DNA of 64,000 nucleotides from Takakia lepidozioides (Eukaryota; Plantae; Bryophyta): NCBI GenBank assembly GCA_030704615.1, contig CM060731.1, positions 72,044,001-72,108,000 of the forward strand. The letters run 5' to 3'. The translations under genes were made by a program, and so were the position numbers. Positions 17,801 to 62,802 of the stretch are shown one piece after another; the stretch's first letter is position 1; every line of letters starts with the position of its first letter. The notes under the pieces were generated by a model, which saw only the letters and a list, made by a program, of their open reading frames with translations, was not told the DNA's origin and ran no database searches.

Positions 17801-20338
17801 CCCTAACCATGTTGGGGTCTAATTGTTGGGCAGCTCAAAGCATCCAAAAGATGGCCGAGTGGTTAGGACACAAGACTGCCTAACAAGTGGTCTGGGTTCA
17901 AAGACCACGTATGTGTATGTTGGATGTCACCATCATATAATCCAACCCAGTTATAAAAAGGGATCCCAAAGAGACACGGCTATTTGTAACTGAGGACATG
18001 AGGTCAATTGCATTGCCTTGCTTACAATCATTAGAACTTGTCCATCTTCCAAGCGGCCCCTTGGGGATGAAGTGACACCATAAGTTATTTGTGTTTGGGC
18101 AGGAGTCCTCCCGCTCCTTGGGCAGTTCACACACTAGTTGAAGCTTGGTGTGAAGGGCTTTCTAGAGGACATCTTTGAAAACCTGAACTAATTGTCTTCA
18201 CCATGTGCTAAGTCATACTACCGGAGTAAGTGGATGTCATTTCAGCCAAAATGGCTATTATGACATTTTAATTCATTTTATTTTTAATGAAAGGCCCAAG
18301 TTAGGCCACAATATATTTAAAATGAGGAAAAAGTAACCTCACATGACATGCCATGGAGGCTGAAAAAGGGCACACTGCCCCCTAACCAGGAAAGTCGTGA
18401 AGAAGAGCCTAGCATAAGTCTATGAGGGAGAAGAAGGTCCGAAAACGTAATAATCAGAACCGCAGGAGGGAGGGGAGATTCAACGAGGAGTTCATCGGAA
18501 CCAGCGTAGAAGAAATCGTTGGAGAACGCGCCAGAAGAGTCACTGGAGGTCACACCTGAGGGAAGTCCGACGCCAAAGACCAATCTAAGTTAGTCCCTGA
18601 CCATCACCTTTGGAATTCGAGGATAACATCAACTGGAAGCACAAGAAGAATAGGAATTCCAAGATTAAAGCTCAGATCTAAGCGTTAGGCCTTGTTTCTC
18701 AGCTCTCGTCCCCTTTTCAATCCTTGTTCTGCAGGGTTGTTTCACTTTTGGCATAGATGGTATAATTTCTTGTTAGATTTATGCCTTAGTGGTTGTTTTT
18801 TAGGTTTGGTTTTCAGCAGCTGACTCTTTCAGTAAAGCATGACTGGTAATTATGGCTACCCATTGCGGTGCTCTGAGAGGTTCCCCACGATTGTACTGTC
18901 TTATGGCCCTCAGGAGGTTATTTTTTCCTCGTTTCTTAATTTGATTAGAAGGGCTCCGTTCCCCTTTCCTTAAATAAAAAATAAAAACTAATAAAACTTT
19001 AATAAATACCTTTCTTTGTATCTTTCTTTTTACAGGCTATTTTTCATTTTGCCTTTCACACAGGCAATATATGGTCATTGCCTTTCTTTTGACAGGCCGG
19101 TTTTTTTTTTTTTTTGGGTATTTTTTGCCTTTCAAATGCCTTGTAACAAGTGCAAAAAGCAACCTATTCATGACATTCGGCCGAGCCACTGGAAAAAGAA
19201 ATCATACTATACATAGGTCTTACATGGCATTTGGATTATTTATAAACACACCTCAAGCCAGTAGGAGCATGCCTAGCATTGCCAAAAAGAAGGGCGCCAA
19301 CTTCAAAATGATGCTTCCGGTTTTTTTGGCTGGCTTCCCGTCCCCAGCAACACCGCGAGGCTCTTTAAGGCCGCCTCCCCACTAAAACTCATCCTCTCTC
19401 CCATGGCATCTACTGCTCTTTGCTGACCCCCTCGCACGCTATCCTCAAATTCGGTGGGCCTAAGTTTAGGTTGTGGAGAGCATGGGCCAGTCCCTCCTGG
19501 CCTCCGGCTTGGGAAACCTAGTGTATGTGGCATTTTTAGGCTATGGTGGAAGTGAAACTGGTACCGATAGATAACCGCGCCAGAATGGCGTGCATCCGTC
19601 GATTGCTGGGGCAAGTGGCAAGTTGGCCACTTGCTCGCATTACTTATTGCCGCAGCAAAAGACCCACCACTTTGACGGTTTTGCGACTGTTTGGTGAGGC
19701 TGTGCTGGTCATGCCCTAAGACAATATTGTCGTAGCAGCATGTACACAAACAAACAAGTACATTCCATATGACATAAATCAAATGCCAGACCGAAGAAAA
19801 AGTTTAATTTTTATTAGCCACGAACTCATTCAAAGCCGCAGCATCACTTGGATCTAAAGAGTACAAGTTTTGAGATGGTTCAAATGACATAGTCACTGTT
19901 GAGATTATGGTATCAACATCAATCCACTATGTATCACTGGAGTCATATTTGAACTTCAGATGATCCCTACCTAATTTCATCCTGATGGATTGGAGCCGGA
20001 TGAAATATGAGAAACTTGAAAAGGATGGATACATTATATTGTAGATAAAACCCTTTAAGGTAGTGGCATCTAGAAGTGTGCGCGACCTTATTATGTCCCC
20101 TATTTTTGATGAATGAAGTCACCATTTTCATTTTTGTACTGTGCACTTTTGTAAAGGAGGCGATTCAAGGTTAATTCTTGCTTTGGATTAGGTACGATGT
20201 GAGGTGTTTTGGAGTACAAGGGGTTTATTTAATGCATTAGTGAAGCTAATTACATAGCAGCCTATTGATTCTTATTTCAAATTCCTAATTTGTTTTTTGA
20301 AATGGAGGCGAGTGTTTTGGGACAATGGCCAATTAATA

Positions 20339-20857
20339 TGTCGTGCGCATACATATCGCTACACAACTACATCGCTGTCCAAACCACACCACACATATAT
20401 GCACAATAAAGTAGTCTAGCACAATGATAAAAAACTTGAAAAAGGACACACTCTCAAACACAAAATATGCAATCCCTCAAGATCACTCTTTAAATAGTCG
20501 AGCCAGGGGCACCCCAAGCTATGGGGACTCCACCCCACAACAACCTACACTCCCATCATACACTCAGATCTAAAATGCAGGAGCTCGTCGCGCAGGCTCA
20601 ACTCGAGAGAGATGAGCTGCGCGACTGCCGCTCTCGTGAAGATAAGACGACCAGGTGTCAAACTAAACTTGACACCTGATTTAACACTTGACCTAAATCC
20701 AAGTGTTAAATACAAATAACTAGTTTTATTCTAGCTGTTTTCACACTGTGCTTATTTAACTTGACAGCTGTCGTGCGCATACATATCGCTACACAACTAC
20801 ATCGTCGCTGTCCAAACCACACCACACATATATGCACAATAAAGTAGTCTACCACAA
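20339..20857 (-). repeat. 3' terminal B1-gc-A2-B2 repeat block
   Basis: An ~87-bp B unit is present twice, flanking an ~342-bp A unit that recurs at 31892-32246, 58593-58949 and (reverse) 61287-61541. Confidence 0.9.
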
Positions 20858-21114
20858 TCGCCCCCCTAGCTGGTGGATAGGTCCCTCTACCTCCAGATAG
20901 CTACAAGATGTAATAGCCACAGCCGTACTAAGTCCTCTATCACTGTCCCTATCGTACTCAAACTCTATAGACCAAGAGGCCGGGTACAAGAGTAGCCCCA
21001 TCGTTAGTCGCCGTCTTGCAATCTGTGAACTTGAGCCAGGACTCGTGTGTTCAAGGTCTCCTAGTAGCTGGGCCTTGCGTTTCTTGTTAGCCTCCATGGT
21101 TGTATCCACTCCCA

Positions 21115-22380
21115 CTATCCAATGCAATGTGGACATAACCAATCCCCATCCGGAACCATCTCAAGAGGTGGAGTCAAGCATCCCATATGCCAACCTCTAG
21201 AGCATCGATCACACACCAGCATGGTGGCTGCCCCTTTAGCAGACCCACACAACATGCACCTCAAACCTGCAGATACCACTGCCAGGTTTGGGTCAATCCT
21301 GCCATCGACATTCGGAAGGTGACATGGCGCACAATTACGCACATGGTCCTTCCAAGTTATGCCATCCCGACCCTCCAAGACCAAGACGCCTGAGGGCAAG
21401 ACCTCTCGAACCCTCAAAATAACACGTCCTGCAGTCACATCCAGGGTCGTAGGAGCAGTCTGCTGCAGATAGACATAGTCACCAGGGTTGAATCTCCGAA
21501 CCCCAGGACGATAGCCCCCACCACGTATGGTAGCATACCTCAACGTATCACGGTGTTGTGCAATGGCAAGGTTCTCGAAAGCCATGGGCATGACTCTCTT
21601 GAACAACTCTGCACGCTGCTCACATGCACGTGCCCACACGTCCGGATCGTCAAGGTTAAGAACTGTAGCAGCTTCTCTGCGAATGGATGTAGGCAAATCC
21701 GGCTCTCGGCCAAAGAGAAGAAAGTATGGTGAGAAGGAGGCAAGTGATGCTTGCTTGCTGAACCTGTAGCCCATGGCTAACCAGGGTAACTGAAGGTCCC
21801 AATCTCCTAGGTGTCCCTTCTGCAAGCCATACTTGCGCAAACCCCTCTTTACTGTCTGAACAACTCTCTGCCAAGCCATCGGCCTCAGGATGATCCCGAG
21901 AAGTGGCGGTGGTCTATCAAGGCCTTGTCACACAAAGCCTGAAACTCCCCCAAGAACTCTCTCCCTTGGTCCGTGAGTACCTCAGCTGGAGCACCGAATC
22001 GGCTAAGCACACAATCCAAGAATGCATACGCAGCTCCCTCACTAGCCTTATCAGGCAATGGAACCAATTCAATCCACTTGGAGAAGTGCTCCCACCATCA
22101 CCAACACGTACTTGTTGTGGCGCATGGTCAGTGGCAACGGCCCTGCGAAGTCAACTCCACCTGTAGCCCAATCCCATGATCGGAAGAGGGTGCAATTGTG
22201 GAGTAGGGGCGTTGAATGAAGCACGCACCCTGTCACACACCATGCACCTAGCCACAAATTGTTGCACCTCTGTGTGCATACCACGCCACCAATACTGCCC
22301 CTGCAGTAGACTATGAGTGCGTCGCACCCCAAAATGCCCCAACTCCTCATGGGCATGCCGCACTAACCGTGCCCGCTGTG
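21115..22380 (-). CDS. DDE integrase (HHCC zinc finger, rve core, SH3-like region) with C-terminal PHD finger; frameshifted in this copy
   Basis: HEELGH...CMVC; DFAGP / TDQGREF / GLAERVVQT; RFNPGDYVYL; CMLC...CDRC..GWHMGC...WLCPHC. The same region is a single ORF at 59944-60939. Confidence 0.93.
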
Positions 22381-22859
22381 TTGGGTGAGGCACAATCCTC
22401 ACTCGACCATCCTCCCACACTCGGAGCAGGTGTGTCCCCTCCCACCTGAACCTCTTGGCTCGTTGTAGGATCCGATCCCTCTCCTTGGCAGTCATAGTGG
22501 CTGCCGTGTCTCCACTGCGGAGGTAGTCCAACACAACTGAATCCTCATGTATATCTTTGGCGCCACCCTGCTCATTGCTGGCCTCAGGGTCCTCAGACAC
22601 TTGATCTACAGTCATCCCTGTTGTAGGTCCAACCTGGCCTTCCGCTGCCAAGATACACAGAAATGCAGATGCATGCCATCCGGGCACCATCTCCTCGTCC
22701 GTCTCACCATGCCACCGAGCTCCAGTGTCATCCTGCTGGCTCGTGCATGGATTGCGACTCAACCCATCTGCATTTCGATTGACCAAACCCGGTCGATGCA
22801 CCACCTGAAAGTCATACTCTTGAAGGATGAGTGCCCACCGTGCAAGCTTCCCGTAAGCT

Positions 22860-24081
22860 TGTCTGACTCCATCAACCACTTGAGTGGTTGGTGATCCGTG
22901 ACAAGGGTGAAGAGATTGCCGTATAGATAGCACCTGAAGTGTGCCACGGCCCACACTGCAGCTAAGCATTCTCCCTCATATGAGCTATACTTAGACTCTG
23001 CAGCATTGTTCGAGCGGCTAGCATAAGCCACTACGAACTCTCTTCCCTCATCATCCACCTGTGTGAGCACCGCTCCAAGCCCCAGCATGCTCCAATCTGT
23101 ATGCAGCTGAAAAGGACGCCCCCTGATAGGTCGTCTCAAGATGGGCGCCGAGGTCAACCTCGCCTTGAGCTCTTGAAAAGCTTGTTCTTGCTCATCTTCC
23201 CACTGCCACTGGGTCCACCTTGGTCAGCTTGGTTAGAGCCTTTGCAATGGCACTAAATCCCTTAACAAACCGTCTGTAATAGTTTGCTAACCCCATGAAA
23301 GCTCGAACTCGGCTCACATCCGTGGGGCGTGGAACCTGTGCAATGGACTCTACCTTAGTCTGCTGTACCCCCAATCCTCCAGGATATATCATGTGACCCA
23401 GATACTCAATCTGGTTGTGGAAAAACTTGCACTTGCCCGGATGTAACTTCAATCCGTGCGTCCTCAAGCGCTCAAATACCCCCTGAAGGTGTCTCTCATG
23501 CTCCTCCACCGTAGCACTAAAGATGATGATGTCATCTATGTAGCACCGAGCAAACTCCACCCCTGCTAGAATCCTGTCCATGACTCTTTGAAACTCAGCG
23601 GGAGCGTTTTTAAGCCAAATGGTAAGAACCGCCACTGGTATAGGCAATCCTTCCCGTGCTCATTGATCCCCCAGAATGCCGTCTTTTGCTTATCCGCCTC
23701 CTTGATCGGCAACTGGTGATATCCGGATCGTAAATCCAACGTGCTAAAGACCTTGGAATGCCCAATGGCATCAAAGATCTCCTCTGGTGTTGGCATGGCA
23801 TACCTATCGGACTTGGTCTGACGATTTACAGGCCGGTAATCACCGCACATACGTCTCTCCGTCCAATTGCCATAGACATCCTTCTTAGCTGGCATCACTG
23901 TGGCTGAAGCATACTCTCCACCAGAGAGCTCCACCAAACCTGCCTCCCAGAGATCTTGAGTCCTCATCTGAATCAAAGACCTCTCCATGTCACTGTATCT
24001 ATAGGGTCTCCGAAAGATTGGCGTGTCAGTGGCCAACTCAATACGGATCTCTTGACCCTTCAGTGCTCCCAAGTCCTTCAA
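22860..24081 (-). CDS. Reverse transcriptase + RNase H (Ty3/Gypsy type), several 1-nt frameshifts
   Basis: RRMCGDYRPVN, FSTLDLRSGYHQL, LPFGLKNAPAEFQR, CYIDD, IEYLGH, FMGLANYYRRF; RNase H LHTDWSMLGLGAVL, YSSYEGECLA, TDHQPL. Confidence 0.95.
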
Positions 24082-24529
24082 ACTGAAGGCAAAGCAATTC
24101 CTGTAAGCCCTCAGGAACCGCCGTATACGTCGTCTCTCTCCTCCGGTGACAATGGGTCCAATGTCAGGCTCCCAATTGTCCTCCGTAACTGCAACCTTAA
24201 GTCCAGTGGGCTTAGAGGTAGAGGACGCGTCCCGTGGTTGCTATGCTGCAACCTCTTGAGCAGTACCCCCTTCCTGCTCAGTCAATGACAAGGCCTCATC
24301 CTGCCCCATCATCTCATCATTGAGAACCTCCTCATCCCGAGAAGAATCCCCAACCTCATCCATCACAGCTGCCTTCGCTGCCAACTCCCCTCTGAACCTC
24401 GCACCTCCCACATGTGCCATGGATGTCTACCTCGTGGTCCTCACCGGCTCGCCCCCACTCGCTGCCTGTACCGTCTCGGTAGGCAGAGAGACCGTCAAGG
24501 GAAGTGCACTCCGCACTCTACGTTGCTCA

Positions 24530-25485
24530 GCCATAGCCAAGCTGACAATCCAGGTCAAGCAATTGAGATCCATTGCTTGCCCCAACACCTGACGACGTGA
24601 TGCCTCAGAAAGAGAAGGCACCGCCGTGGTCCCAGTGGAAAACCCCATAGCCCGCTCTCGCTCGTCGGCATTAGGCTCCACTAACTGCTGCAACTGAGCA
24701 TCCCACAGGAGGCCAGGTCCACCATCCCGAAAAGCATGGGATCCTGGGAAGCTGAGCAGTGTAGGTAATGCTGCTCGTGGTTGACCCACCCTGTTGACCA
24801 CTGCCAAAGGCGAACGGTCATCGTGTCTCACACGTTGAGACTGCCTTCCTGTGTCCAAAATGCCATCCACGGTGAGGTGTGCTGGCCGCTGCACCCCATC
24901 AAATGCACGCTTGAGCAGTGCGGGTGGCATCAAGTTAGTCCACCATAGTCGTGGACGATGAGCCCGTGACCCCACTGCAGCTGCATCCAGCAACACTGCT
25001 GACCCAAGCCACGACCGGACTTGATGCACACTGGCCATCACCCTGGCCCGAGAATCACCCATCAGTGGTACATTCTCCAAGATGTATGCTGGAGATACAG
25101 CTTGATGAAGCTGCAAGCAGCGCAAAATCCGCACCATCTCCCAAAACAGACCCGTCCTCGAGTCTCGCAATCCATTGCCATGCCCGGCTGATGAATGCCC
25201 TTGGCAGGGCCAACCTGCCACTATCAGATCAATGAGCCAACCTGCTCCAAATCTTGCGCCCCCAACAAGGAAATGTCTGCTGGCAAGGCTTGTTGGTATC
25301 CACGAACTGCAGACACAGGCAACAAGTCAGGGTACTGCTGTACCAACTGAGCCACATGGCGCAGTGAGACGCGTCGTGCAGTCTCATCCCTCTCCACATA
25401 CAGGTAACGCCTTACCCGCACACCTGCCTGTAGCACAGCAGCCAATCCGGTGCTGATCCCGCCAAACAAGTCCAGAAGGCAAATG
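24530..25485 (-). CDS. DNMT3-like C5-cytosine DNA methyltransferase domain inside pol
   Basis: Motif I LLDLFGGISTG; II YVERD; IV IDLIVAGWPCQG; VI YILENV; VIII AHRPRLWWTNL; IX ERERAMGF; X RRQVLGQAMD. One 1-nt frameshift at ~25235. Confidence 0.9.
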
Positions 25486-25879
25486 CCTTCATCCGGCCGC
25501 TGCCACACAAGAGGTGTGGTGTCCAATGGCGACAACTGAGGTGGCCCTGGTGCAATCACCGCACTCTCCTCCTCTCCTGACGGTACAAAAGCTTCTTCCC
25601 AAGCTTGTTGCACCCGTCCATCAGCAGCTTGCTGCAAATCCTTGCTCGTACCCCACAACGGAGTGTGAGCAACCATGGCAGGCAACTCCGCCGTACCATG
25701 CATGTCATCCTGCTCTGCTGGAGGTGGCACATCCTCTGCATGGGCATTGCCTTCCAGCAACTCTCCAGGCCAACTAACTGCAGCTGTGAAGGCGGCTAGT
25801 GTTGGCATCTTGCCCCGCTGGGCAGCTGCAATACCCCCAATGAATGTCACAGGGAGCTGTGCACGGCGACCATCCCCTG

Positions 25880-26290
25880 ACTGCCATCCAGGCCTGTAGG
25901 ATGCTGACTCCTCCCAGAAATCCAGGGTGAAGCCCATGGGGTATAACACTGCCCCACCAACGAGGACATCGTAAGAGACCGCGTCTGTCACAATGGCCTT
26001 GGCTCGCATCACTGAGCCATCTACAGGATGATCCGGCTGCAGTCTAATAGCCAACTGATGCCGTGTCATGCCCCGAGCCTGCTCTGATCCTCCCAGAGAT
26101 GTCTGTATCTGGAAAGGACAAGGCTCCATATCCGCCTCCATGAGGCCCAAACCTGCAATAGCAGCTCTGCCCAACATCAGTGGCTGAGCTCCTGAGTCCA
26201 ACAAGACCCGCAGTGGCCGGTACTTCTTGCCTGCGGTCCACTCAAAGTGAAAATGCCTCCCTGGTTGTCTAACAAGACAACTCCAGGTGT
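25880..26290 (-). CDS. Retroviral-type aspartic protease
   Basis: VLLDSGAQPLML...YDVLVGGAVL, in frame with DNMT motif I in ORF 25224-26204. Confidence 0.85.
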
Positions 26291-26829
26291 CACCATGGCG
26301 CGCTCAAAGGCTGGCCTAGCTGGCAGCTCCGTCAACTGGCAGCTGCAGCTTGCCAGGGCGCTGCCGTGGCAGTCTTGACCCTCAAATCCGAGGATCCCTC
26401 TGCCACTACACCTTCCACTAACTCCGCAGAAGATGAAGTGACCTCCCACTCTCACAGAGTTTGCTGCTAGTCTGAACACTGCAGCTGGTCTCACCCCGGC
26501 GTCGCAATCATGGTTGCCGAGAACAGTGGGGCTTGACACACAGAGGTGGCTGCCCCCAATAACACACCGCCGCACTAGCCTTGGCAGCAGGAGTCAATGC
26601 TGCACGTGTAGCTCTCCCCAATGGCATAGTAACCTCCGCCTCGGTAACAGTCGGGCGAGAACTAGGTGCCATGGATGGCGTCGACACAGTCTCCGCCAAT
26701 GTGAATGACTGAGGAAGCCTTGCCTGACGGCTTGCCTCCCCACGCTGTGGATCCAATTCCACCTCTGCACCTCGTGGCTCAGGAACTCGTGCTGCTCCTC
26801 GAGTCACGGCTGCAGCAGACTCCACCTGC

Positions 26830-28410
26830 TCTAGTGGTAGTGCTGCTCCGCACATAAATCCCATGCCTCCCATATCTCCTCCCCAGGAGCAGGAGGTGGA
26901 CCATCCCGCCTGGGAGCCGAAGCTATAGCCATGGCAGCGAGCCTCTGCTCTAGCTGCTGAAGCCGGTTGGCCATGCCTTGATCAACGCCCTGACCTCCGC
27001 GTCCTTGGCCATGTTGAGCTTGCCCTTGGCCTGCACCTCGTGCCCGACCACCTCGTCCTCTCTGGGCTGGTCCACCTCGCCCCCGGCCACCATTGTTCCC
27101 TTGGAACTGGCCTGGGCGCAACTCAGGATGCAAGTCATAACACTGGGCATCTCCATGCCCATACTTGCCACAATGCCCACACTGCAACTGTGCAGGCTGT
27201 GCTTGTGCCGGCCTTCTGCCACTCTCTGGGCAATCTCTCTTGACATGGGGTCCTCCACATGTCCAACATATCACCCCTGGTTGCTGTTGGCCTGCAAAAG
27301 ATGCCACGGGCCTCTGCACCTGAGGCCCCCTGTAAGCTCCATGGAACTTGGGCTGGGCAACCTTGCCCCCTGACCACGCTGTTGGGCAGTCCCTTGTGCT
27401 TGTGGGCTGACAGCTGTGCCCCGTACAGGCATGTCCTTGCCAAATCCAATTGTAACAACTCGTCCCACCATGTTGAGCTCAATCCGCTCAGCCAGCAGAA
27501 ACACATCTGCTAATGTGGGTTGGGCTGCTTGTAACAGGGTTGCATCTCGCACCCTTCTCTTGAGCTCCTTGTCCAGAATTCCATACCAAAACTGGATTGC
27601 CTGAGCTTCAGTAACCCCTTGGGTCACACTTATCAAGCGCCTCATACGAGTGTACGCCTCTCGCAGGCTCTCACTGGGTTTGCGCTGGAAGTCTTGCAAA
27701 CTTCGCAGCTTCTCTGTCCGTACACCTTGGTAGTTCCTCCGCAACTCCTGGAAGAACTCCACCACCGGGTTGAATCTAGGCACATGTGTTGTAGTGTGGC
27801 AGGAGGAGTAGTAGCACCTTTGAACTGGTACCACCTGCAGAAGTACCAGCACTACCTGCTCCACTACTAGTGCTGGCAGTGGGAGCTATTGGTACTGATG
27901 CAGCTACTGGTCGCGTCGTGCCTCGAGTAATGGAGATGTAGTCAGGTGACCAATACATCCTCACTCCTCAATCTCTGCTTCATGTCCTCGCCTGAACTCG
28001 TGGTAATCGTCCATAGGCGGGCCTTCCAAATGCTGGAACAGTCCCTTCCACGCCATGAATGGGGTGAATAGATGTGGATTGCGCATCTGCTGCAAATCAC
28101 ACCAGCTGTCGAACTCCTGGATAAAGTCATCCAACTCGATTGTGCCCACAGCTCCAGAGTACCTACGAGGCCCCTTGGTAGCTCCATACATCTCCTCCAT
28201 GTCGTCCCACAACAATGGCGAATGAAAGTGCACACCTGTTGATGAAGCCTCCGAGTCTGTGTCTGACTCTACAGTAATTGAGGGTGGCGGTGAAGGTGGT
28301 CTGAACCGAATACCTCGTCTTGTGAACCCACTCTCACTGTTACTGCCTGTAGCCGTACTCCCCTCCCCTGGGTAACTCCGTAATGACACTCACAATGTGC
28401 ACCTCCTCCA
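26830..28410 (-). CDS. Gag (capsid + two CCHC knuckles), frameshifted
   Basis: FQRKPSESLREAYTRMR (major homology region); CWTCGGPHVKRDC and CGHCGKYGHGDAQC. The capsid part is one ORF in the second copy (53914-55011). Confidence 0.85.
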
Positions 28411-28927: not shown

Positions 28928-29730
28928 CTATGCTATCAACTTCCAGACTTCTCTCAAAGTGCCTCGCTCTGCTTGATGGTAAGGTGTAGGAGGTATATCT
29001 ATGTCCAGAAACCTGCCACTAACCTTGTCCCAAGCTACAGTAGCTCGCTCTAACCAACCCTCCTCCTCTTTCTGCCAGGTAGAGACAAAGCAACACTCTG
29101 CTATCTCCCGCTCACTGAACACTAAAGAAAACAAAGGTAGGGTCTGATAGTCTCTCAACTCGAAAGCTTTGACGGTTGCGGGTGTCTTCATTGCGAATGA
29201 CTGCATCGCCTTCAAACAGAACAAACTTGTCCTCGCTAATGAACCCCCGCTCATGGTTGCCTTGTGCAGAGCGTGTCCGACTGCAACACTGTCTAATTGC
29301 ACAAACTTGTGCAGCTCCTGCTCCTCTGCTCCAGTACACCACGGCCTTGTGGCTGAACACCTTGGTCCCCGGGGCTGTCTTTGGCTGTGTTCCAAGCCTA
29401 GCTTTCACCCACTTTGGTATTTCACCTACAGCTGCAGAACTGCTGGCTCCAACAGAGTTCTGACTGTCCAAGGCGATATTGAGGCCCTCAATGCCAACTA
29501 CAGCAGTCTGTTGTCTACTGCTAATGCCTGACTCCCAGTATGCAATCAACTCGTCCAACTGTTCTCCACTCAAATCAGTCTGAGTTTCCTTGGGAAACAT
29601 AAATCGTGTCCCCTTGTGTGCACAGACTAAGAGAAGAGACCTGCCCTTCAATTACGTCCTCATTTCCCCCAGCCATGCAAGTACATCCACCAATTTGTCT
29701 CTCATATAGACCAGCACAGGTTCTAGAGAC
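28928..29730 (-). CDS. Unknown ORF (~260 aa after frameshift correction) upstream of gag
   Basis: Overlapping ORFs 29112-29651 and 28928-29395; conserved in the second copy at ~55529-56345. No family recognised. Confidence 0.5.
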
Positions 29731-31891
29731 AGGATTGTGGATCTTTCATGGCACACTCACACTCTAAAAATTCCATAGATTTTTAGCAGAGTCCCAAAAA
29801 CAGAAACCAGGTTTAGATAGGTAGATTTCCCCTTTCTGCAGCTATCCCCCAAAAACTGGGTCAACCAGAGTCCATTTGACAAGATATGATGAATTTGGCT
29901 CCAAATCATTCAAATTAGATTAAAAAGGTTTTTTTTTTTTTTAAAGTTTAAAGTTTAACATTTAAAGTTACACCCAAAATGTCTGGTAACTGGTTCCCGG
30001 TTCCCTAAGTTCTATATGGCATCCTAGGTTCCCTAGCCACGTGCCCTGTAATTTCTAGGATTTCAGTTGTGTTTACAAATGCACCCCCCACAGCTCTTGG
30101 TTACCAGTGACCTGCTCTCCTCCAGTCGAGATCCGTAGCTATGCCGAGCCTCTAATCCTTTGCACCAATATTCCCAACAAAAGCAAGAGCACTTACAATG
30201 CAACCCCGGAAAGCACCAGAACTGACTAGCTTGATCAAGAACGCTTTCAGCCCTTCATGCGTGCTGATTTTTCAAGGTGACAACAACAGATCTGCTATCA
30301 CTGATTGTGTAAGCCTTTCCATGGAGTTGGCACAGGCTGCCCTCAAGTCCTGAATTGTAAACATAGACCAAGCAGGTCGTGTAGTGAGCTGGGCCCCTTC
30401 AGCTCATATCCCACTCATACACCAAGTGTCACCTGGTGAGTCCACAGTCTCCCACTCTCATACTCTCTGCAACAAACACAACCTTGAGGTTTCAATCCTC
30501 CAAAACCTGAGGATCGCCAGCCTGGGAGTTGACACTGTCAGAAAGCGCCCTTCCCTTCCAGCAAATGGCCTAAGATCTGGTGACCTTGTCTATCCTTCCC
30601 TGGACAGCTCTTGCTTGGCCTTTCTCACAGCTGCCTGACATTAGACTACCCTCCAACGAATCGGGTGAAGAGAGATGACCAGTAATAGATTGCCTGGAGG
30701 CTTGCTGCTGCAAAGGGGCTGGCGTAAGTGCAGCAGCTCGTTGTGCTGGCTCAATGTGGAGTTCAGCTGCATTACCCGTGTACTGCCTGGCAGGAAGTTG
30801 CAATGCCCCACATCAAGGTGGCCTGTAAGCGCTGCCACCACGAGCTCCTCTTCAACAGTGCGCGGCAGGTGTCCAACTGCCCTCATGCCTTCTGCACTCC
30901 AGCCATCTCGAGCCAAAAACCCCATTCCACTAGAAAGCAACACTCAACCAACGAAGTGGCAATGGAAGGCTACACAGATGGTACGCCGAGATCAGAGACA
31001 TGCATCTCTCTGACGAACAGTTCTTTGCAACGGAGCGCGCCTACCAAACTCGCTCTGCGCAGAATCTGCCAACGATCAATGACACACATGCCCCAGGCGC
31101 TCCAGCAACACAAACTCCTGTGACAACCAACCCGTCAGACCACCAGATTATCCTCCGCTCTGCAACGCCTACGCCACCTGGTGCTCTTGGCTAACAACCC
31201 AGGTATCAAACGAGCACCGAGTGCGCTCAACAGTGATGCCGGCAGCTCCCACTCTGATCCCAAAAGTATGCTACGCCAGGCCCCTCACAACACATAGACA
31301 CCTCCAGTTCACCGATCACTGCCTTTACTAAGCACGGTAGCAAACTATGGTCTGGACTTCTCAAAATCGAGCTCCTCCACCCTGCGACTGATGGCATTGC
31401 GCTCTTAACAGACAACCGCGCCTTCGTTATGGAGATAGCCTTGGCGATTCCCATTCAGGACAAAGTGGAGAAGGCCCACGACCTACCTGCCTCCTCCACT
31501 ACCTTTCCCTGTACGCTGGCAGCGAGTCTCTACAGAGCACGGTGAATCCAGCAATATGCTTGCAAGCCAAAATGGGCTACCAGCCAATGGCCCTTCTTGA
31601 GCTGCAACACAGATGACCACACAAGTTGGGCACGACTGGCCTACTGGGTGCTCAGCCTGCCCCAGCGCTCAGGCAGCAGAGTCGCCAAGGCCCCCTGCGC
31701 GCACCCGCCACCACAAACAGGGATGACTACACCCTGATCACCACTAACGCCCATGTGTAAACAACAAGCGCAAACCCATGGCAACAGCAGGACTAGATGG
31801 GCTCCTGCCCCAAGTCATATATTTAAATAGTGTTAAAGAACATTGTATCTAGCTTAGCACTAGAAAACTAGATAGGCTCATCTCTCTCGAG

Positions 31892-32246
31892 TGATAAACA
31901 AACTTGAAAAAGGACACGCACTCTCAACACAAGAAATATGCAATCCCTCAAGATCACTCTTTAAGATAATAGTCGAGCCAGGGGCACCCCAAGCTATGGG
32001 GACTCCCCCCCACAACAACCTACACTCCCATCATACACTCAGATCTGAAGAATGCAGGAGCTCGGTCGCGCAGGCTCAACTCGAGAGAGATGAGCTGCGC
32101 GACTGCCGCTCTCGTGAAGATAAGACAGACCAGGTGTCAAAACTAAACTTGACACCTGATTTAACACTTGACCTAAATCCAAGTGTTAAATACAAATAAC
32201 TAGTTTTATTCTAGCTGTTTTCACACTGTGCTTATTTAACTTGACA
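31892..32246 (-). repeat. 5' terminal repeat A1 (LTR-like, TG...CA)
   Basis: Direct repeat of 20425-20766; not followed by a B unit. Confidence 0.9.
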
Positions 32247-32889
32247 AATACAACAACCAAGCATCAATGCAAATGGGATGCATGGTGCACCTTATATAGT
32301 GTTACAATGCACACATTTTTATCATACTTCCGTTGCCAAGGATGGCGGAAGAATGGGAAATGAGGGAGTTGTGGAGTCTTTTGGCTGTGTCCAGGGGGTC
32401 GGCTAGTTCCCTCCAAAGGAAAGTTATGGGTCCTTCCATAAGTAGATGTGCCCAATTCCGCGTTGGGAGACCGTTACTTTTGGGCCCGCACATGGCCTAG
32501 TTTTGTTAATTTTTGGGACAGGTTTAGGTGCACATCTTGTGCACTTAGGGCAACTTAAAGCACATATCAAGGAGGATTATAGGGCATTATAGGATGGACC
32601 TACTGAGCAGTAGTGGGATAATATGTACTTTGATTTTGATAATTCATATATAATACATCCATGATTGGAAAATTATGTGCTTTGCACAAATGATTGTTGC
32701 TTCATTTACTATTCTGCTCATATAATTTTTGTGACACTACACCCTCTGAGGAGTTGCACACTGCTTAAAAGCACACTTCAAGATACCACTATCTTACATT
32801 AATTTTTTTAAGTAAAACTTTGGATTTTAAAAATTGGATGAAAGGATATTGCCTTACCGTATTTTCTAAGTAAAGCTTTTCTAAAATTT

Positions 32890-40000: not shown

Positions 40001-43000
40001 TTGTATGCTCACCCAAAAGTTGTGTCACTGTCAATGGACAGAAGTCTAACTTCTTTGACATAGACCAAGGTGTAGCTCAAGGATGTACTCTCTCCCCTCT
40101 GCTATTCAACGTTTTCATCAATCAACTCCTTGAGGATGTGGAGAGTGAGGGATTTGGGTTAAGGGTGGGTGATGCCACCATACCAGCCCTTCTGTTTGGG
40201 GATTCGCAAGCATAGAGGGGAGACTCCTTCCAATCTCCAGGAGTTGATTGAGCGTGCAAAGGGATACTTTGACCTTTTGGGGCTAGAGGCTAACGTCAGT
40301 GAATGTGCAGTGGTGGCATTCAACGACCGAAGATAGGGAGGAGGTGATCTCAAGTGGCAGTGGGGAAGCCAAGAGATCCCGGTCCTGCCTTCGTACACAT
40401 ACCTCGTTGTTGAGTTTTCCTCCAACTGTTATTGGGATGCACATATTCAGAAAGTTGTTCAAACTGGCAAGCACAAAGCGCTGGGATCAACTCTTGTGGT
40501 AAAACAAACCATGCTTTGTCGCGGTATTAGACCTGCCTTGGAATATGCATCTGCAATATGGGTTGATAACTCCAACCAGGCTAAGTCTCTAGAATCCATT
40601 CAAGTGGGGGTGCTTAAGAAATGCATTTCAGCATGCTCCAAAACAGCCAATGTGGCTGTTCGGGGTGAGTTTCGCATCCCTTAAGCTCCTGACTGGAAAA
40701 AAGTTCAAGGAAGTTTTCTGCCTAACTTCATTTTCATCAGACAATTTCCTGCCAACAGACATGGCTTTGGACACTACAGCCTCTAAGTCAGATTTACCCG
40801 CAGGGTCAAGACTTGCGGGCTAAGATTCAGATCCTTGAGAATCTCTTCTACTCTCTTCCGCCAGGACTTACGCTGTTTGACAGGGCGATCCTGCTTCCAA
40901 GACATAGAGTCGATTGACTTACGGAGGACATCATGGATGACCTCAAGGGTCAACCTCCTCTAGGCACTAGACTGAAATTTAAACTCAGGGCGGGAAGCCT
41001 ACCTTTGAACAGCAAACAGAAGCAGAGAGGAAAGGGAGAGTGCAATTGCCTGTTGTGTGGGCAATCTGAAGACAATATTCCTTTTCTGATTCATTGTCCG
41101 GCGTTCTCTCACCAGAGAGACGCTCTTCAAATCTATCAAGGGAATTGTGCCTGTACCTCTGTTTACCAACTTTGAGAGCCAAAAGCCCAGGCCCTTTTGG
41201 GGCCTAGTTATTGGGCAAACCACACACACCAGGTTGATGCTTGTGTAAAGGAATTTCTAGAGGATCTTTGTTCACCCTTTCTCCTCGAGACTTGTGACTG
41301 GCAGTGCAACCACAGTCAAATGTGTCATCTGTTGCAAGGTAGAGGGTTAGGGGAACAGTTCTGCAGCAAGCTCATGCTGTCTAGCCTGAGGCCGATGCCA
41401 GCACACGTACTTGGATTGTTGTTGGGTGTGAGGGAGCCTTATTTGTGGGGCTGTCTGAAATAGCCTGGTGATTATCCCACCAGATTAGCAGTGCTCATAT
41501 CAACTTTGTTGGGTCATGATGATCTGCTACATATGGGGATGGGATCTATGCATTTTGATAATGGAGGCGGGGATAGCTGAAGGAGGCAGGGAAGGAGTTT
41601 GGGTGCAGATGCATACTAGAGGACCGGAGTTCCAGCAAACCGAGGGACTGTATATTAATAGCCACAAGAAACCTCTGCGGGTATATGGTCAACTAGAAGC
41701 GGCAGTGGCAACACAGTCACTTGAATCAAGCACCTCCACCAGGAGCACTGTTGTTGAAAAAAGACTAAGAAAAGGAGTCCACAAGAAGTCTTCCGGTAAT
41801 TTTGGAGATGTGAGGACACTATGTAAGGCAGGACAATTGGAAAAGTTGCTACACATTTTGAACCAAGGTCGCATGTTGCCAGACTCTGGAACTTATGTCT
41901 GTCTCTTGCAGGAGTGCATCAAGAGGAAAGGTCTAGTAGAGGGAAGGCAGGTACACACCCACATTATCCAAAGTGCATTCAAGCCAAACATCCTTTTAAA
42001 CAACATGCTCATCAATATGTATGCCAAGTGTGGGGGCATTGCAGATGCCCGCATAGTGTTTGACAATATGCCTGAACGAAATATTTTTACATGGAATATA
42101 ATGTTGGCAGGATATGCCAAGGCAAATCCAGCCAAGGAGGCCTTGAAGATCTATGAGCAAATGATACGAGAAGCGGTGAGTCCCAACAGGGTCACATTCC
42201 TTTGTGTTCTCAAGGCGTGTGCCAGCTTGGCAGCCTTGGAGAAGGGCAGAGAGGTCCATGCTGATATGGTCAAAGCTGGAATTGCATCAGATATCATTCT
42301 GGACACTGCCCTTGCTGCCATGTATGCGAAATGTGGGAAAATGAAGGAGGCTCGTCAAGTTTTTGACAGTATGGCTCAGCGAGATGTTGTTTCGTGGAGT
42401 ACCATGATAGCAGGATATTCTCAGCAGGGGTGTGGGAGGGGAGCTTTGGAGATCTATGAGCACATGATACAGGAAGGGGTGATGCCCGACCAAGTTGCAT
42501 TCGTGTGTGCTCTGAATGCATGTGCCAGCCTGGCAGCCCTGGAAAAGGGCAAAGATATCCATGCTGAGATCATCAAAGCTGAAATTGAGCCCAATATCAT
42601 TGTGAAGAATACCCTTGTGGACATGTATGCCAAATGTGGGAACATGAAGGATGCACGTCAAGTATTTGACAGTATGACTCAACGAAATGTAGTTTCCTGG
42701 AATGCACTGATTGGAGGGTATTCTCACAATGGGAGTGATAGGGAGGCTTTGGAGACCTATAACCAAATGGTACACAGAGGGGTGATGCCTGACCAAGTCA
42801 CATTCGTTTGTGTTCTCAATGCATGTGCCAGCCTGGCAGCCCTCCAAAAGGGTAAAGAGATCCATGCTGATGTCATTAAGGCCAGAATTGAACCAACTAT
42901 CATTCTGGAGACTGCACTTGTTGATATGTATGCCAAATGTGGGAACTTACAGGATGCACGTCAAGTGTTTAACACCATGGCTCACCGAAATGTGGTCTCT

Positions 43001-43831
43001 TGGAATGTGATGATTGCAGGATTTGCTCAGCATGGCTGCGGTATGGATGCTTTGGAGACCTATGAGCAAATGAACTGGGAAGGGGTGGCACCTAACCAGG
43101 CCACGTTCGTCTCTGTTCTCAAAGCATGTGCCAGCCTGGCAGCCGTGGAAAAGAGCAGAGAGATCCATTCTGACATTATCAAAGCTGGAATTGAGCCCAA
43201 TATCATTCTGGAGACTGCTCTCATCAATATGTATGCCAAATGTGGGAAGATAAGTGATGCCCGTCAAGTGTTCAACGACATGACTCAACGAGATGTAGTC
43301 TCATGGAATGCGATGATAGCAGGATATTCTCAGCAGGGGTGTGGTAGGGAGGTCCTGCAACTGTTGCAGCAAATGAGACAAGAAGGCTTGAAGCTGGATG
43401 GTATCACCTTAATATGTGTTCTCTCTGCATGCAGCCATCTGGGCCTAGTGGATGAAGGCAGTCACTACTTTGACACTATTAGCCGAGATCATGGCCTCAC
43501 TCTTACAGTGGAGCATTTTGGCTGCATGGTGGACCTTCTTGGCCGTGCAGGGCGACTGTATGAGGCAGAAGATTTTATTAACAAAATGCCAATCAAGCCA
43601 GATGCTTCAGTGTGGCGGGCCTTGCTTGGTGCCTGCAGAATTCATGGCAACGTGGAGGTGGCAGAGCGTGCAGCAAAGGGCCTTCTCAAGTGTGATCCAC
43701 AAGATGCTGCAACTTATGTGTTACTATCAACCATCGATGCTGCAGCTGGCAGGTGGGATGATACTGCAAAGGTGAGAAAAGTGATGCAGGACAGAGGTGC
43801 CAAAAAGGAGCCCAGGTCGCTGTTGCATTGA
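37068..43831 (+). CDS. PLS-class PPR protein with N-terminal OSB-type PDF motifs and E domain (4 exons); DYW tail disrupted
   Basis: Exons 37068-37514, 37821-37938, 38219-38313 and 41609-43831, all GT-AG and phase-compatible (0,1,0); five L-S-P triplets then L2-S2-E1-E2 (HFGCMVDLLGRAG...WRALLGACRIHGN). Confidence 0.8.
38780..41262 (+). mobile_element. Degenerate LINE (RT-containing) in intron 3 of the PPR gene
   Basis: GPDGIVNELIK, NYRGITLLN, QAGFRRNRGC, FLDVKKGYD, GVAQGCTLSPLLFNVFIN and the C-terminal zinc motif; many frameshifts; 5' limit uncertain (possibly ~38400). Confidence 0.85.
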
Positions 43832-53810: not shown

Positions 53811-53854
53811 CACCTGAAATCTGTCAGCATAAGATTGAACTGGAACCAGGAAAG

Positions 53855-56800: not shown

Positions 56801-58949
56801 GCATCTGAGCTCTGGCGATGGCGGATCTGCTCCTGCGCTATTGCTCCTCTTCCTCGAACTGGGCGTGCACGCTGCGGCTGAAGATGGAGCTTGCAACAGT
56901 GAGCGGCAGCAGGACGAGGCAAGAACTGACTCGTAGCAGGGAGCTCCCTTGCTCTACAATGGGCCCCATCTTCTTTGCCTCCCGCTCTTTTCATGTGCCT
57001 GCTCACCTCCCTCTCAGTGCAGCATTCCTTCTAATGCCACCCGCAGTGCTCGCAATTTCATGTTGCCACCAATACAGGGAAGTGCCACCAATCCCGAGCT
57101 TATTCTGTCTTCCTTGAAAGCCTGTTGGCCTATCTCAATCTTCTCATGTACTTAGCTTTTCTATCACATGTACTTGCCAGTTCACCTCCATGGCTGTGAC
57201 CCTGCTCTCAAACAGTATAAACATACATAAACTGTGCATCACACAGGCAGTCCTAAGGCTCTGTATTCTCTACACCTTTTAGCCTGTGACCACCTTCTTG
57301 GCAACAATCCAGGCTCTAGGATCTAACCTGCAACATGAGTGTGCAAAAGAACCGTTGTGATGCACACTCATCCAAAGAGATCTGCTCCAGCTCAATACTC
57401 CATGCCCATTTGCTCTCACTCCTTACGGGCCGTCAAGTGGTCTTGGATAGAAAACTCCCAGCTATCAAGACTTTATGGAGTGGTATGAAATGCGACAGTC
57501 ACCCAGTATGACTGTGTTGAGCGCACCGATACATTAAAACGCTTACTGAAATGCTGCTTTTCGCTTTTTGGCAGCCTTCTTGGCCATTCGAGAACCTTTG
57601 TCTGCAAGAAGAATGGAAGCAAACACATGTGTGTCTGCTCTTCACCCTCTCCAAGATCTGCCACATGAAAGCCTTGTTTTACCAGACCTGTGTAGGGAGG
57701 CTCTTGCAAGGCCTGCATCCCTCAAGACTTCCTCTATTGCAACATCATCATTCCATGCCACCTCAGGAATCACTTTGTTAAAATGACGTTGAATCTTCGT
57801 GACGTTTCGCTCATCTTGATCTATGAGCAACAAATTGAAAGCAACACCTTTGCGACCAAACCGCCCGCTTCGACCGATTCGGTGCAGATATGTCTCAGGG
57901 AGCTCTGTTCCCGAAAGCTTGACTGAACGAGGGAAAGTGGTCCGGTGCAGAATCTCAGCGACATCAGCATTCCTCAGAAGTTCGTCTCCTTCATTGTGAC
58001 CGGAAGTCAAATGCGTTCACATTGGCGAAGGTAACTGGTGCCTTGAACTTCCAACCCTGCAGCAAATGGCCATTGCGAGAGACAGCAAACAATGCAGACT
58101 TGCTGCCCTGCAAATTGGAACTAACTTAAGCCGGGAGAGACCTAATATTGCATGGAACGGAAGCCAGTCCCACTCATGCTGGCGGAATATCGCTGGTCAC
58201 CAAATCCCAGCCAGCGCGGGCCCTTCGCCGGGAGAGAGCAGGAGTAGCTTTAGATGAAGAAAGCAGTGTCTCGTTATCCCAGATATGAGAGAAATGGCTA
58301 ATGTTGGCCGCCTCCCATGGGCCCATCGCGCAGGCAGACAGTTCAGTGGTCACTGCAAGACTCCATCACCAAGACCTTGTGGCCAACTATCAAAGTCTCC
58401 AACCTCCACACCTCTTGTTTTTATTTTATTTTTAAAACTCACGAGCAGAGACAACAACTAGATCTGCGCGCACAGCCCATGGCAACAGCAGGGCCAGATG
58501 GACTCCTGCCCCAAGATGTATATTATAATAGTGCTAAAAAAACATTGTATCTAGCTTAGCACTAAAAACTAGGTAGCATCATCTCTCTCGAGTGATAAGA
58601 AAACTAGAAAAACACACTGTTTACACAAGAAAACAACATGAATCCAACAGCATCACTCTTTAAGATAATAGTCGAGCCAGGGGCACCCCAAGCTATGGGG
58701 ACTCCACCCCACAACAACCTACACTCTCATCATAAGCACACTCAGATCTGAAGCGATGAAGGAGCTCGGTCGCGCAGGCTCAACTCGAGAGAGATGAGCT
58801 GCGCGACTGCCGCTCTCGTGAAGATAAGACGGACCAGGTGTCAAACTAAACTTGACACCTGATTTAACACTTGACCTAAATCCAAGTGTTAAATACAAAT
58901 AACTAGTTTTATTCTAACTGTTTTCACACTGTGCTTATTTAACTTGACA
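53855..58949 (-). mobile_element. 5' half of a second copy of the split-repeat element (A1, cargo slot, unknown ORF, gag)
   Basis: Collinear and highly similar to 26772-32246 except the cargo slot and a ~495-bp deletion at 53924; A1 at 58593-58949. Confidence 0.9.
57704..57900 (-). pseudogene. Captured C-terminal fragment of DEAD-box helicase DBP5/DDX19 (plant RH38/LOS4)
   Basis: [24 protein letters not shown]...[28 protein letters not shown]: motif VI plus an RH38-like tail. Confidence 0.75.
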
Positions 58950-59942: not shown

Positions 59943-61541
59943 CGTGTTGGTGATGGTGGAGCACTTCTCCAAGTGGATTGAATTGGTTCCATTGCCTGAT
60001 AAGGCTAGTGAGGGAGCTGCGTATGCATTCTTGGATTGTGTGCTTAGCCGATTCGGTGCTCCAGCTGAGGTACTCACGGACCAAGGGAGAGAGTTCTTGG
60101 GGGAGTTTCAGGCTTTGTGTGACAAGGCCTTGATAGACCACCGCACCACTTCTCGGGATCATCCTGAGGCCGATGGCTTGGCAGAGAGAGTTGTTCAGAC
60201 AGTAAAGAGGGGTTTGCGCAAGTATGGCTTGCAGAAGGGACACCTAGGAGATTGGGACCTTCAGTTACCCTGGTTAGCCATGGGCTACAGGTTCAGCAAG
60301 CAAGCATCACTTGCCTCATTCTCACCATACTTTCTTCTCTTTGGCCGAGAGCCGGATTTGCCTACATCCATTCGCAGAGAAGCTGCTACAGTTCTTAACC
60401 TTGACGATCCGGACGTGTGGGCACGTGCATGTAAGCAGCGTGCAGAGTTGTTCAAGAGAGTCATGCCCATGGCTTTCGAGAACCTTGCCATTGCACAACA
60501 CCGTGATACGTTGAGGTATGCTACCATACGTGGTGGGGGCTATCGTCCTGGGGTTCGGAGATTCAACCCTGGTGACTATGTCTATCTGCAGCAGACTGCT
60601 CCTACGATCCTGGATGTGACTGCAGGACATGTTATTTTGAGGGTTCGAGAGGTCTTGCCCTCAGGCGTCTTGGTCTTGGAGGGTCGGGATGGCATAACTT
60701 GGAAGGACCATGTGCGTAATTGTGCGCCATGTCACCTTCCGAATGTTGATGGCAGGATTGACCCAAACCTGGCAGTGGTATCTGCAGGGTTGAGGTGCAT
60801 GTTGTGTGGGTCTGCTAAAGGGGCAGCCACCATGCTGGTGTGTGATCGATGCTCTAGAGGTTGGCATATGGGATGCTTGACTCCACCTCTTGAGATGGTT
60901 CCAGATGGGGATTGGGTATGTCCACATTGCATTGGATAGTGGGAGTGGATACAACCATGGAAGGCTAACAAGAAACGCAAGGCCCAGCTACTATGAGACC
61001 TTGAACACACGAGATCCTGGCTCAAGTTCACAGATTGCAAGACGGCGACTAACGATGGGGCTACTCTTGTACCCGGCCTCTTGGTCTATAGAGTTTGAGT
61101 ACAATAGGGACAGTGATAGAGGACTTAGTACGGCTGTGGCTATTACATCTTGTAGCTATCTGGAGGTAGAGGGACCTATCCACCAGCTAGGGGGGCGATT
61201 GCGGCAGACTACTTTATTGTGCATATATGTGTGGTGTGGTTTGGACAACAATGTAGTTGTGTAGCGATATGTATGCGCACGACAGCTGTCAAGTTAAATA
61301 AGCACAGTGTGAAAACAGTTAGAATAAAACTAGTTATTTGTATTTAACACTTGGATTTAGGTCAAGTGTTAAATCAGGTGTCAAGTTTAGTTTGACACCT
61401 GGTCCGTCTTATCTTCACGAGAGCGGCAGTCGCGCAGCTCATCTCTCTCGAGTTGAGCCTGCGCGACCAAGCTCCTTCATCGCTTCAGATCTGAGTGTGC
61501 TTATGATGAGAGTGTAGGTTGTTGTGGGGTGGAGTCCCCAT
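59943..61541 (+). mobile_element. Inverted 3' piece of the second copy: integrase core-PHD, B1-gc-A2 (partial)
   Basis: ORF 59944-60939; B1 ~61198-61284, gc, A2 61287-61541. Confidence 0.9.
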
Positions 61542-62802
61542 TTGTGGCGCATGGTCAGTGGCAACGGCCCTGCGAAGTCAAGACTCCACCTGTAGCCCAA
61601 TCCCATGATCGGAAGAGGGTGCAATTGTGGAGTAGGGGCGTTGAATGAAGCACGCACCCTGTCACACACCATGCACCTAGCCACAAATTGTTGCACCTCT
61701 GTGTGCATACCACGCCACCAATACTGCCCCTGCAGTAGACTATGAGTGCGTCGTACCCCAAAATGCCCCAACTCCTCATGGGCATGGCGCACTAACCGTG
61801 CCCGCTGTGTTGGGTGAGGCACAATCCTCACTTGACCATCCTCCCAAACTCGGAGCAGGTGTGTCCCCTCCCACTTGAACCTCTTGGCTCGTTGTAGGAT
61901 CCGATCCCTCTCCTTGGCAGTCACAGTGGCTGCCGTGTCTCCAGTGCGGAGGTAGTCCAACACAACTGAATCCTCATGTATATCTTTGGCGCCACCTTGC
62001 TCATTGCTGGCCTCAGGGTCCTCAGACACTTGATCTACAGTCATCCCTGTTGCAGGTCCAACCTGGCCTTCCCCTGCCAAGATACACAGAAATGCAGATG
62101 CATGCCATCCGGGCACCATCTCCTCGTCCGTCTCACCATGCCACCGAGCTCCAGTGTCATCCTGTTGGCTCGTGCATGGATTGCGACTCAACCCATCTGC
62201 ATTGCGATTGACCAAACCCGGTCGATGCACCATCTGAAAGTCATACTCTTGAAGGATGAGTGCCCACCGTGCAAGCTTCCCCGTAAGCTTGTCTGACTCC
62301 ATCAACCTTTGAGTGGTTGGTGATCCGTGACAAGGGTGAAGAGATTGCCGTATAGACAGCACCTGAAGTGTGCCACGGCCCACACTGCAGCTAAGCATTC
62401 TCCCTCATATGAGCTATACTTAGACTCTGCAGCGTTGTTCAAACGGCTAGCATAAGCCACTACGAACTCTCTTCCCTCATCATCCACCTGTGTGAGCACC
62501 GCTCCAAGCCCCAGCATGCTCCAATCTGTATGCAGCTGAAAAGAACGCCCCCTGATAGGTCGTCTCAAGATGGGCGCCGAAGTCAACCTCGCCTTGAGCT
62601 CTTGAAAAGCTTGTTCTTGCTCATCTTCCCACTGCCACTCCTGGTCCACCTTGGTCAGCTTGGTTAGAGCCTTTGCAATGGCACTACATCCTTTAACAAA
62701 CCGTCTGTAATAGTTTGCTAACCCCATGAAAGCTCGAACTCGGCTCACATCCGTGGGGCATGGAACCTGTGCAATGGACTCTACCTTAGTCTGCTGTACC
62801 CC
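61542..62802 (-). mobile_element. RT C-terminus/RNase H/integrase N-terminus of the second copy
   Basis: Highly similar to ~22115-23370. Confidence 0.9.

Follow-up and report, generated by a model that had tools for sequence, protein, structure and literature searches.

Introduction

Tf1 primes reverse transcription with 11 bases of its own RNA that are freed by RNase H cleavage (passages in PMC7175516 and PMC4600332). A sequence test for such self-priming looks for a region 0-5 bp after the 5' LTR that is complementary over at least 10 bp to a site within the LTR, and the passages describing it name only Tcn1 and TAR elements as reported plant examples (PMC6317226). Split end repeats are typical of another group, the YR elements Ngaro, PAT-like, VIPER and TATE (passages in PMC6681497). 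They have also been described, as DIRS-type repeats in the order A-coding-B-A-B, in KnitGypsy-Dnmt3 of Klebsormidium nitens, whose gypsy pol contains a DNMT (de Mendoza 2018, passages in PMC5890265). The passages of PMC5890265 and a term search of its three supplement files contained no primer-binding site (PBS), priming, target-site duplication (TSD) or integration model.

Self-priming (in Tf1 and Tcn1) and a split layout (in KnitGypsy-Dnmt3) are each already published. REM1 of Chlamydomonas is a gypsy element with a PHD finger and unusual LTRs, and TOC1, also of Chlamydomonas, has split LTRs. Passages citing REM1 describe its integrase as truncated and reversed, and PHD-bearing retrotransposons are confirmed in passages of 10.1101/2021.11.30.470311, PMC9940879, PMC6673714 and PMC2774666. 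Nothing in the literature that we searched brings self-priming together with split repeats and a DDE integrase; the original description of REM1 may already cover split repeats or priming, and Repbase entries may also describe parts of this. Here we analysed a retrotransposon within a 64,000-nucleotide stretch of Takakia lepidozioides DNA (the window) and its relatives.

Results

A Ty3/gypsy element with split end repeats

Repeat A is the 5' end repeat of a Ty3/gypsy element on the minus strand. Read along that strand, the element has the order A1, PBS, leader, gag, protease-like stretch, C5 DNA methylase, RT, RNase H, integrase, PHD finger, polypurine tract (PPT), B1, GC, A2 and B2. The leader between PBS and gag spans 3.5 kb, and the genes are frameshifted. 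We read the 3' end of this family from two window copies and from relatives. The features of the element and of two further copies are as follows.

32247..32250, minus strand: 4-bp target-site duplication, left
31893..32246, minus strand: A1, the 5' end repeat, 354 bp, beginning TGTCAAG, with no B upstream
32065..32103, minus strand: 13-bp hairpin enclosing the primer site; its formation is predicted for the 3' RNA copy
32079..32091, minus strand: predicted self-primer, 13 nt, its start placed from relatives; the complement reaches 32095 in this copy
31971..31979, minus strand: U5 motif, complementary to the 3' end of the primer and 6 nt beyond it; predicted second helix where the cut is expected
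31876..31892, minus strand: primer-binding site, without TGG
26834..28389, minus strand: gag region in frameshifted pieces (PF03732, weak, below cut-off)
24430..26303, minus strand: protease-like stretch (motif by eye) and C5 DNA methylase (PF00145), in two frames
22762..24240, minus strand: RT and RNase H, frameshifted (PF00078, PF17917, PF17919)
21115..22975, minus strand: integrase with H2C2 zinc finger, D-D35E core and C-terminal PHD finger, frameshifted
20859..20867, minus strand: polypurine tract, conserved in relatives
20769..20858, minus strand: B1, 90 bp, ending CACGACA
20763..20772, no strand assigned: B1/A2 junction, a 10-bp palindrome centred on CA-GC-TG, candidate internal att site, of the same form in relatives
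20426..20766, minus strand: A2, second copy of A
20339..20425, minus strand: B2, right end of the element
20335..20338, minus strand: 4-bp target-site duplication, right
58579..58949, minus strand: copy 2, A1 (no B upstream) and 15 nt of PBS
61189..61541, plus strand: copy 3, PPT, B1, GC and truncated A2, within an inverted fragment

The order protease, RT, RNase H, integrase, the D-D35E integrase, the PPT and the TSD, with four identical bases flanking the element on both sides, are those of Ty3/gypsy elements, but instead of two equal terminal LTRs the element shows A1-internal-B1-A2-B2. Its DNA methylase (PF00145) sits between protease and RT, and the integrase C terminus gave no chromodomain match and carries the PHD finger instead. 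At the A2/B2 joint (20425/20426), the end of A minus its last A meets the base that follows the PPT. We rejected the identification as a YR element: a D-D35E integrase is present, and no tyrosine recombinase was found in 95 scanned frames (31 and 64), a scan that short or decayed frames could escape.

Several observations concern the surroundings. Copy 3 (59943-62802) is broken by an inversion at the integrase (at the equivalent of 22108-22115), and its A2 is 99.6% identical to A1 of copy 2. Copy 2 is interrupted by a gag-protease fragment of a different gypsy element (51631-53999, plus strand). Upstream of gag, two overlapping frames of 158 and 179 aa without Pfam match (28931-29651, minus strand) lie in a stretch common to the window element and copy 2. 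An intronless 780-aa PPR protein with an E motif is encoded among retrotransposon pieces (41489-43831, plus strand), and ARAGORN found no tRNA in the 64-kb window. The closest named proteins, among the matches listed, come from Calypogeia, Marchantia, Sphagnum and Klebsormidium, and the C5 DNA methylase of pol (24430-26303, minus strand) has counterparts in numerous proteins of Marchantia, Calypogeia and Sphagnum that carry host-gene annotations.

The PBS is complementary to a site within A

The first-pass annotation had reported that the sequence at the usual PBS position after A1 is exactly complementary, over 17 nt, to a site inside A. This holds. The PBS (31876-31892) sits directly after A1, and comparison letter by letter showed it to be the reverse complement of 32079-32095, with the match ending at 17 nt on both sides (minus-strand reading). 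The match begins with the A of what looks like the terminal CA. All four window copies of A contain the identical 17-nt target (20601, 32079, 58783 and 61437-61453), and copy 2 has kept 15 nt of the PBS (58579-58593), as had also been claimed. A chance match was rejected: no other start position in the window reached 13 nt against the LTR (0/124,062, with the LTR 1 nt short in that test), and none of 1000 shuffled LTRs matched even 12 nt.

We also examined assembled DNA contigs of the window family from public runs. The distal PBS bases 31876 and 31877 vary there in 18-39% of the depth, and among the contig variants listed there was no matching change at 32094-32095 and no variant within 31878-31896 or 32056-32126. 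Hence, no more than 15 nt of primer duplex are conserved in the window family and 12-13 nt across families, and the length of 17 nt is specific to this copy. Summed contig depth reaches 8.5e5 on A compared with ~1e3 beside it, a measure of depth and not of copy number, and the window's A belongs to a very abundant family. Across 31843-32247, the summed depth over A is ~100-300 times that of the leader, with the PBS stretch intermediate (again depth, not copy number); this contrast hints that solo A or A-B units, and non-autonomous derivatives, are numerous. Contigs from one possible RNA run yielded three partial pieces, which are uninformative on expression.

Compensatory changes maintain the duplex between families

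Relatives were taken from the best 80 of 135 metagenome loci and two loci of a genome collection. They form three further families, whose A cannot be aligned to that of the window, and all 14 relatives tested contain the DNA methylase. A MAFFT alignment across families left the primer sites unaligned, and we therefore counted covariation by position from the PBS. In a matrix of five elements from three families, each PBS matched the LTR of its own family over 13-17 nt (17 and 15 nt in the window copies, 17 in L011, 16 in L020 and 13 in L082) and foreign LTRs over 5-9 nt, and for each of the five none of 1000 shuffles reached 12 nt. The region 0-5 bp after the 5' LTR is thus complementary over at least 10 bp to its own LTR, as in the published test for self-priming.

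Between the window element and family 2, six of the 12 core positions have changed in primer site and PBS alike with pairing retained, and L020 and L082, both of family 3, differ at two compensated positions. The primer:PBS duplex is therefore kept through compensatory changes in two related families with unrelated A, which answers the earlier proposal to look for conservation there. All primer sites end in AGT, and the PBSs, without TGG, begin with ACT in three families. The families are related, so they count as three families and not as three independent origins.

Family 2 has a 12-nt PBS that is exact in 7 of the 12 loci having a 5' end, with a complementary site in its own A. An uninterrupted match of at least 10 nt in the locus's own A1 is present in only 4 of the 12 (3 of 10 distinct loci); the primer site is deleted in two loci and mismatched in the remainder, and copies are ~8% diverged. 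Distinct loci, here and for the 3' ends below, were counted by eye. The family 4 locus L010 shows the same site geometry and has no 5' end. L082, a circular contig with one B-A, and L020, with the order B-A-PBS, may both be collapsed assemblies. L082:1-9285 and L083:1-2905, members of this lineage, are filed in a cyanobacterial genome assembly, likely as eukaryotic contamination.

Predicted transcription start and RNA folding

TATA-like boxes lie 29-31 nt upstream of the primer site in family 2, L010, L020 and L082 (families 2-4), while a canonical TATA box at -30 is absent from the window LTR. The match in L082 ends after 13 nt, at the predicted start. Transcription of the window element would start at ~32091, which would make the primer site the 5' end of the RNA, like the primer of Tf1. 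When we folded RNA from the predicted start, the 8-9 bases at the 5' end of the primer paired with the PBS with P ~1 in both window copies. In L011 and L082, 11-12 primer bases paired, and in the decayed L034 P was 0.1-0.5. The last four primer pairs in the window fold were outcompeted (P 0.00-0.22) by the second helix with 31971-31979, which had P of about 0.9-0.96 in the window and ~0.2 in L082. The window copies and 9 of 10 relatives tested carry the U5 motif complementary to the bases flanking the predicted cut, and by eye it can also be recognised in L010.

Three loci, representing two distinct insertions (L032 is the same as L036), end in a fold-back consisting of B-A, a copy of the PBS and the inverted 5' half of A.

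L032:3361-3878, L036:1412-1929 and L056:1283-1798: fold-back elements, ending exactly at the A terminus

Such ends would be expected if plus-strand strong-stop DNA had copied the self-primer and folded on its own LTR. Together with the compensatory changes and the TATA-like box ~30 nt upstream in relatives, they support the tRNA-independent self-priming that had been suggested for this site. Minus-strand synthesis is likely primed by the first 12-13 bases of the element's own RNA, as in Tf1. The RNA 5' end would pair with the PBS, a step for which complementarity and covariation have been shown, and the second helix with 31971-31979 is predicted to flank a cut after 32079. By analogy with Tf1, cleavage at this point by RT/RNase H would free a 3' end for extension. 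After strand transfer to A2 and priming at the PPT, the cDNA would have B+A at both ends.

Covariation is blind to whether the 5' or the 3' copy of the site acts as primer, and A2 holds an identical site. The transcript could hence end at the A2 primer site and pair with the PBS through its own 3' end, with no cleavage. We consider this unlikely, since in four relatives the TATA-like boxes, lying 29-31 nt upstream, point to a start rather than an end, and the A2 site is locked in a hairpin of -28 kcal/mol. Moreover, a polyadenylated Pol II transcript would not end at such a site.

A predicted hairpin around the primer site

The hairpin had been described earlier as a 13-bp stem with a 12-nt loop. 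The stem is as described (32103-32091 with 32078-32065, minus strand; -28.1 kcal/mol, z -3.5, equalled by none of 200 shuffles), but the loop is not fully open, as the minimum free energy structure closes three extra pairs inside it. A hairpin occupies the location of the primer site in all four families examined. This stable and recurrent structure, together with a CTCGAG palindrome whose loop-loop duplex reaches -8.7 kcal/mol, is what could be expected of a kissing-loop dimerisation signal or switch of the kind formed by retroviral DIS hairpins, and the first-pass annotation had proposed one. A retroviral DIS has a conserved palindrome in an open hairpin loop. Here, a palindrome of 4-8 nt occurs in only one of five primer sites, on which ground we rejected the kissing loop, and in two families the primer site lies within the stem and the loop has only 3-4 nt. 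The self-duplex of the primer site is imperfect in L020 (-8.1 kcal/mol) and reaches -2.2 to -4.3 kcal/mol in the other three sites, and the PBS duplex is far stronger than loop-loop pairing (-20.5 to -28.6, computed one base out of register). A kissing loop would also leave the match at the PBS position unexplained, and we regard it as very unlikely. A switch at the 5' end is disfavoured as well: part of the hairpin is made of sequence lying before the predicted start, and an RNA that begins at the primer site could form it only in A2, the 3' copy. There it may mask the second copy of the primer.

Most plant LTR elements use tRNAs as primers (passages in PMC6317226), and a host tRNA, half-tRNA or other small RNA could prime here too, with the LTR match being incidental. 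The absence of TGG and the covariation between PBS and LTR led us to reject tRNA priming: with a fixed host primer, the PBS could not have changed along with the LTR from family to family. Chance was excluded as the source of the match, and an Rfam search gave three matches, all far below the gathering score. Priming by a host RNA is highly improbable. Least probable of all is that the match is a functionless relic of a local inverted duplication in the window copy, which would suit its frameshifted genes and the two distal bases that vary among copies without compensation but is largely refuted by the cross-family matrix, as two other families have the same position and geometry with different sequence; the 15-nt core, with no variant across DNA contigs among those listed, also speaks against it.

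Integrated ends begin with A and end with B

We surveyed 3' ends in 52 loci with a 3' match to B. Twenty-one end in B-A-B (13 distinct by flank) and 24 in B alone (20 distinct); the others are the three fold-back loci, two interrupted in A, one cut by the contig end and one of family 4. No locus of the 52 had a complete A followed by host DNA, and no B was found upstream of A1 in the 12 loci having a 5' end. B-A-B also occurs in L010 and L083. TSDs of 4 bp flank the window element and five of seven testable loci (three with A-internal-B-A-B and two with A-internal-B), whereas L077 lacks a TSD and L063 is ambiguous. The B/A junction has the form CA-NN-TG, often as a 10-bp palindrome, and B ends with an inverted repeat of the sequence that opens A. 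In 18 of the 21 B-A-B loci, the A2/B2 joint consists of A minus its last base and the base after the PPT, without insertion; the other three have 1 or 19 extra bases, as in end joining. If pairing of the primer includes the terminal A, the predicted ends agree with this joint, although the A/B joint of L083 is without the expected A. B1 and B2 are 0.923 identical within elements, hardly above the 0.912 between elements. A search for relatives in viral contigs gave one weak protein match, and all 11 junction-motif matches were without PPT or integrase and were taken as chance.

Ordinary LTR replication would give B-A-internal-B-A, and ligation of its ends would produce the A2/B2 joint. Integrated elements always have the start of A at one end and the end of B at the other, which points to the internal B/A junction as the place where integrase cuts; we put the chance that it cuts an internal att site (CA-NN-TG) of joined or circular cDNA at about even. 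Under established integrase chemistry, cleaving each junction strand after its CA would be a staggered cut that leaves the usual 2-nt overhang and produces the observed termini. The arrangement A1-internal-B1-A2-B2 could then arise from a two-LTR circle or concatemer opened at one CA-NN-TG junction, and we lean slightly towards its derivation from end-joined cDNA opened in this way. The integrated ends would accordingly differ from the presumed cDNA ends with B+A LTRs.

Random opening of two-LTR circles predicts A-B-A-internal-B, and its absence from the 12 loci with a 5' end and from both window copies counts against random opening. B2 could be acquired through a circle with asymmetric cutting, a concatemer or a template jump. 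A-internal-B could stem from one-LTR circles, linear cDNA cut at both junctions, B1-B2 recombination or assembly collapse, and that the last two can also explain B-only ends speaks against the integration model, as do the missing A-B-A-internal-B loci, the lack of a TSD in L077, the A/B joint of L083 and the nearly equal B1-B2 identities. LTR circles are dead ends in retroviruses. If the model is true, this would be an LTR retrotransposon with LTR circles as a productive intermediate, and the Ngaro/PAT layout would have been reached without a tyrosine recombinase.

Discussion

Overall, we think it likely that this element primes its own reverse transcription; integration through an internal junction is a bolder proposal, well motivated but with about even odds. 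More broadly, the odds seem balanced that a green-lineage gypsy clade of liverworts, mosses and charophytes combines self-priming with a permuted LTR, its DDE integrase disregarding the cDNA ends, cutting an internal palindromic att site with a 2-nt stagger and integrating circular or end-joined cDNA. Covariation in a gypsy lineage bearing PHD fingers and DNMTs extends predicted self-priming to a further group, and the 12-13-nt primer and the cut site are now defined in a form that can be tested in vitro. The difference between presumed cDNA ends and integrated ends suggests a mechanism, open to testing, by which the so far unexplained DIRS-like repeats of KnitGypsy-Dnmt3-type elements could arise. 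LTR finders that rely on a pair of equal terminal repeats would be expected to mis-delimit such elements, whose DNMT and PHD pieces carry host-gene annotations in bryophyte genomes.

The window element resembles Tf1/Tf2, Tj1, the Tf1/Sushi group and the plant Tcn1 clade in being Ty3/gypsy with a PBS after the LTR that complements an LTR-internal site (passages in PMC7175516, PMC4600332 and PMC6317226), a site that is taken as the RNA 5' end in the Tf1-type systems described there. It differs from Tf1 and Tcn1 in its 12-13-nt core, in the DNA methylase within pol and in having split repeats rather than two equal LTRs, and from the Tf1/Sushi-Tcn1 chromoviruses in that a PHD finger was found and no chromodomain. 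Plant self-priming has been predicted by the same sequence test for TAR/Houba (passages in PMC6317226), but those are of the Ty1/copia superfamily. Like Ngaro, PAT-like elements, VIPER and TATE, it opens with A1 on the 5' side and closes with B1-A2-B2 on the 3' side; unlike them, it has a D-D35E integrase, PPT, PBS and 4-bp TSDs, and the frames scanned held no tyrosine recombinase.

The closest likeness in layout is to KnitGypsy-Dnmt3, with which it shares both the DNMT in a gypsy pol and the order A-coding-B-A-B. No K. nitens-named protein was present among 89 DNMT matches or among the best 120 of 238. K. nitens integrase-PHD proteins are 51-56% identical to that of the window element. KnitGypsy-Dnmt3 is an element of Klebsormidium nitens and the window element resides in a land plant, as also seen from the PPR-E gene in the window and from closest named proteins of liverworts and Sphagnum; the two most likely belong together.
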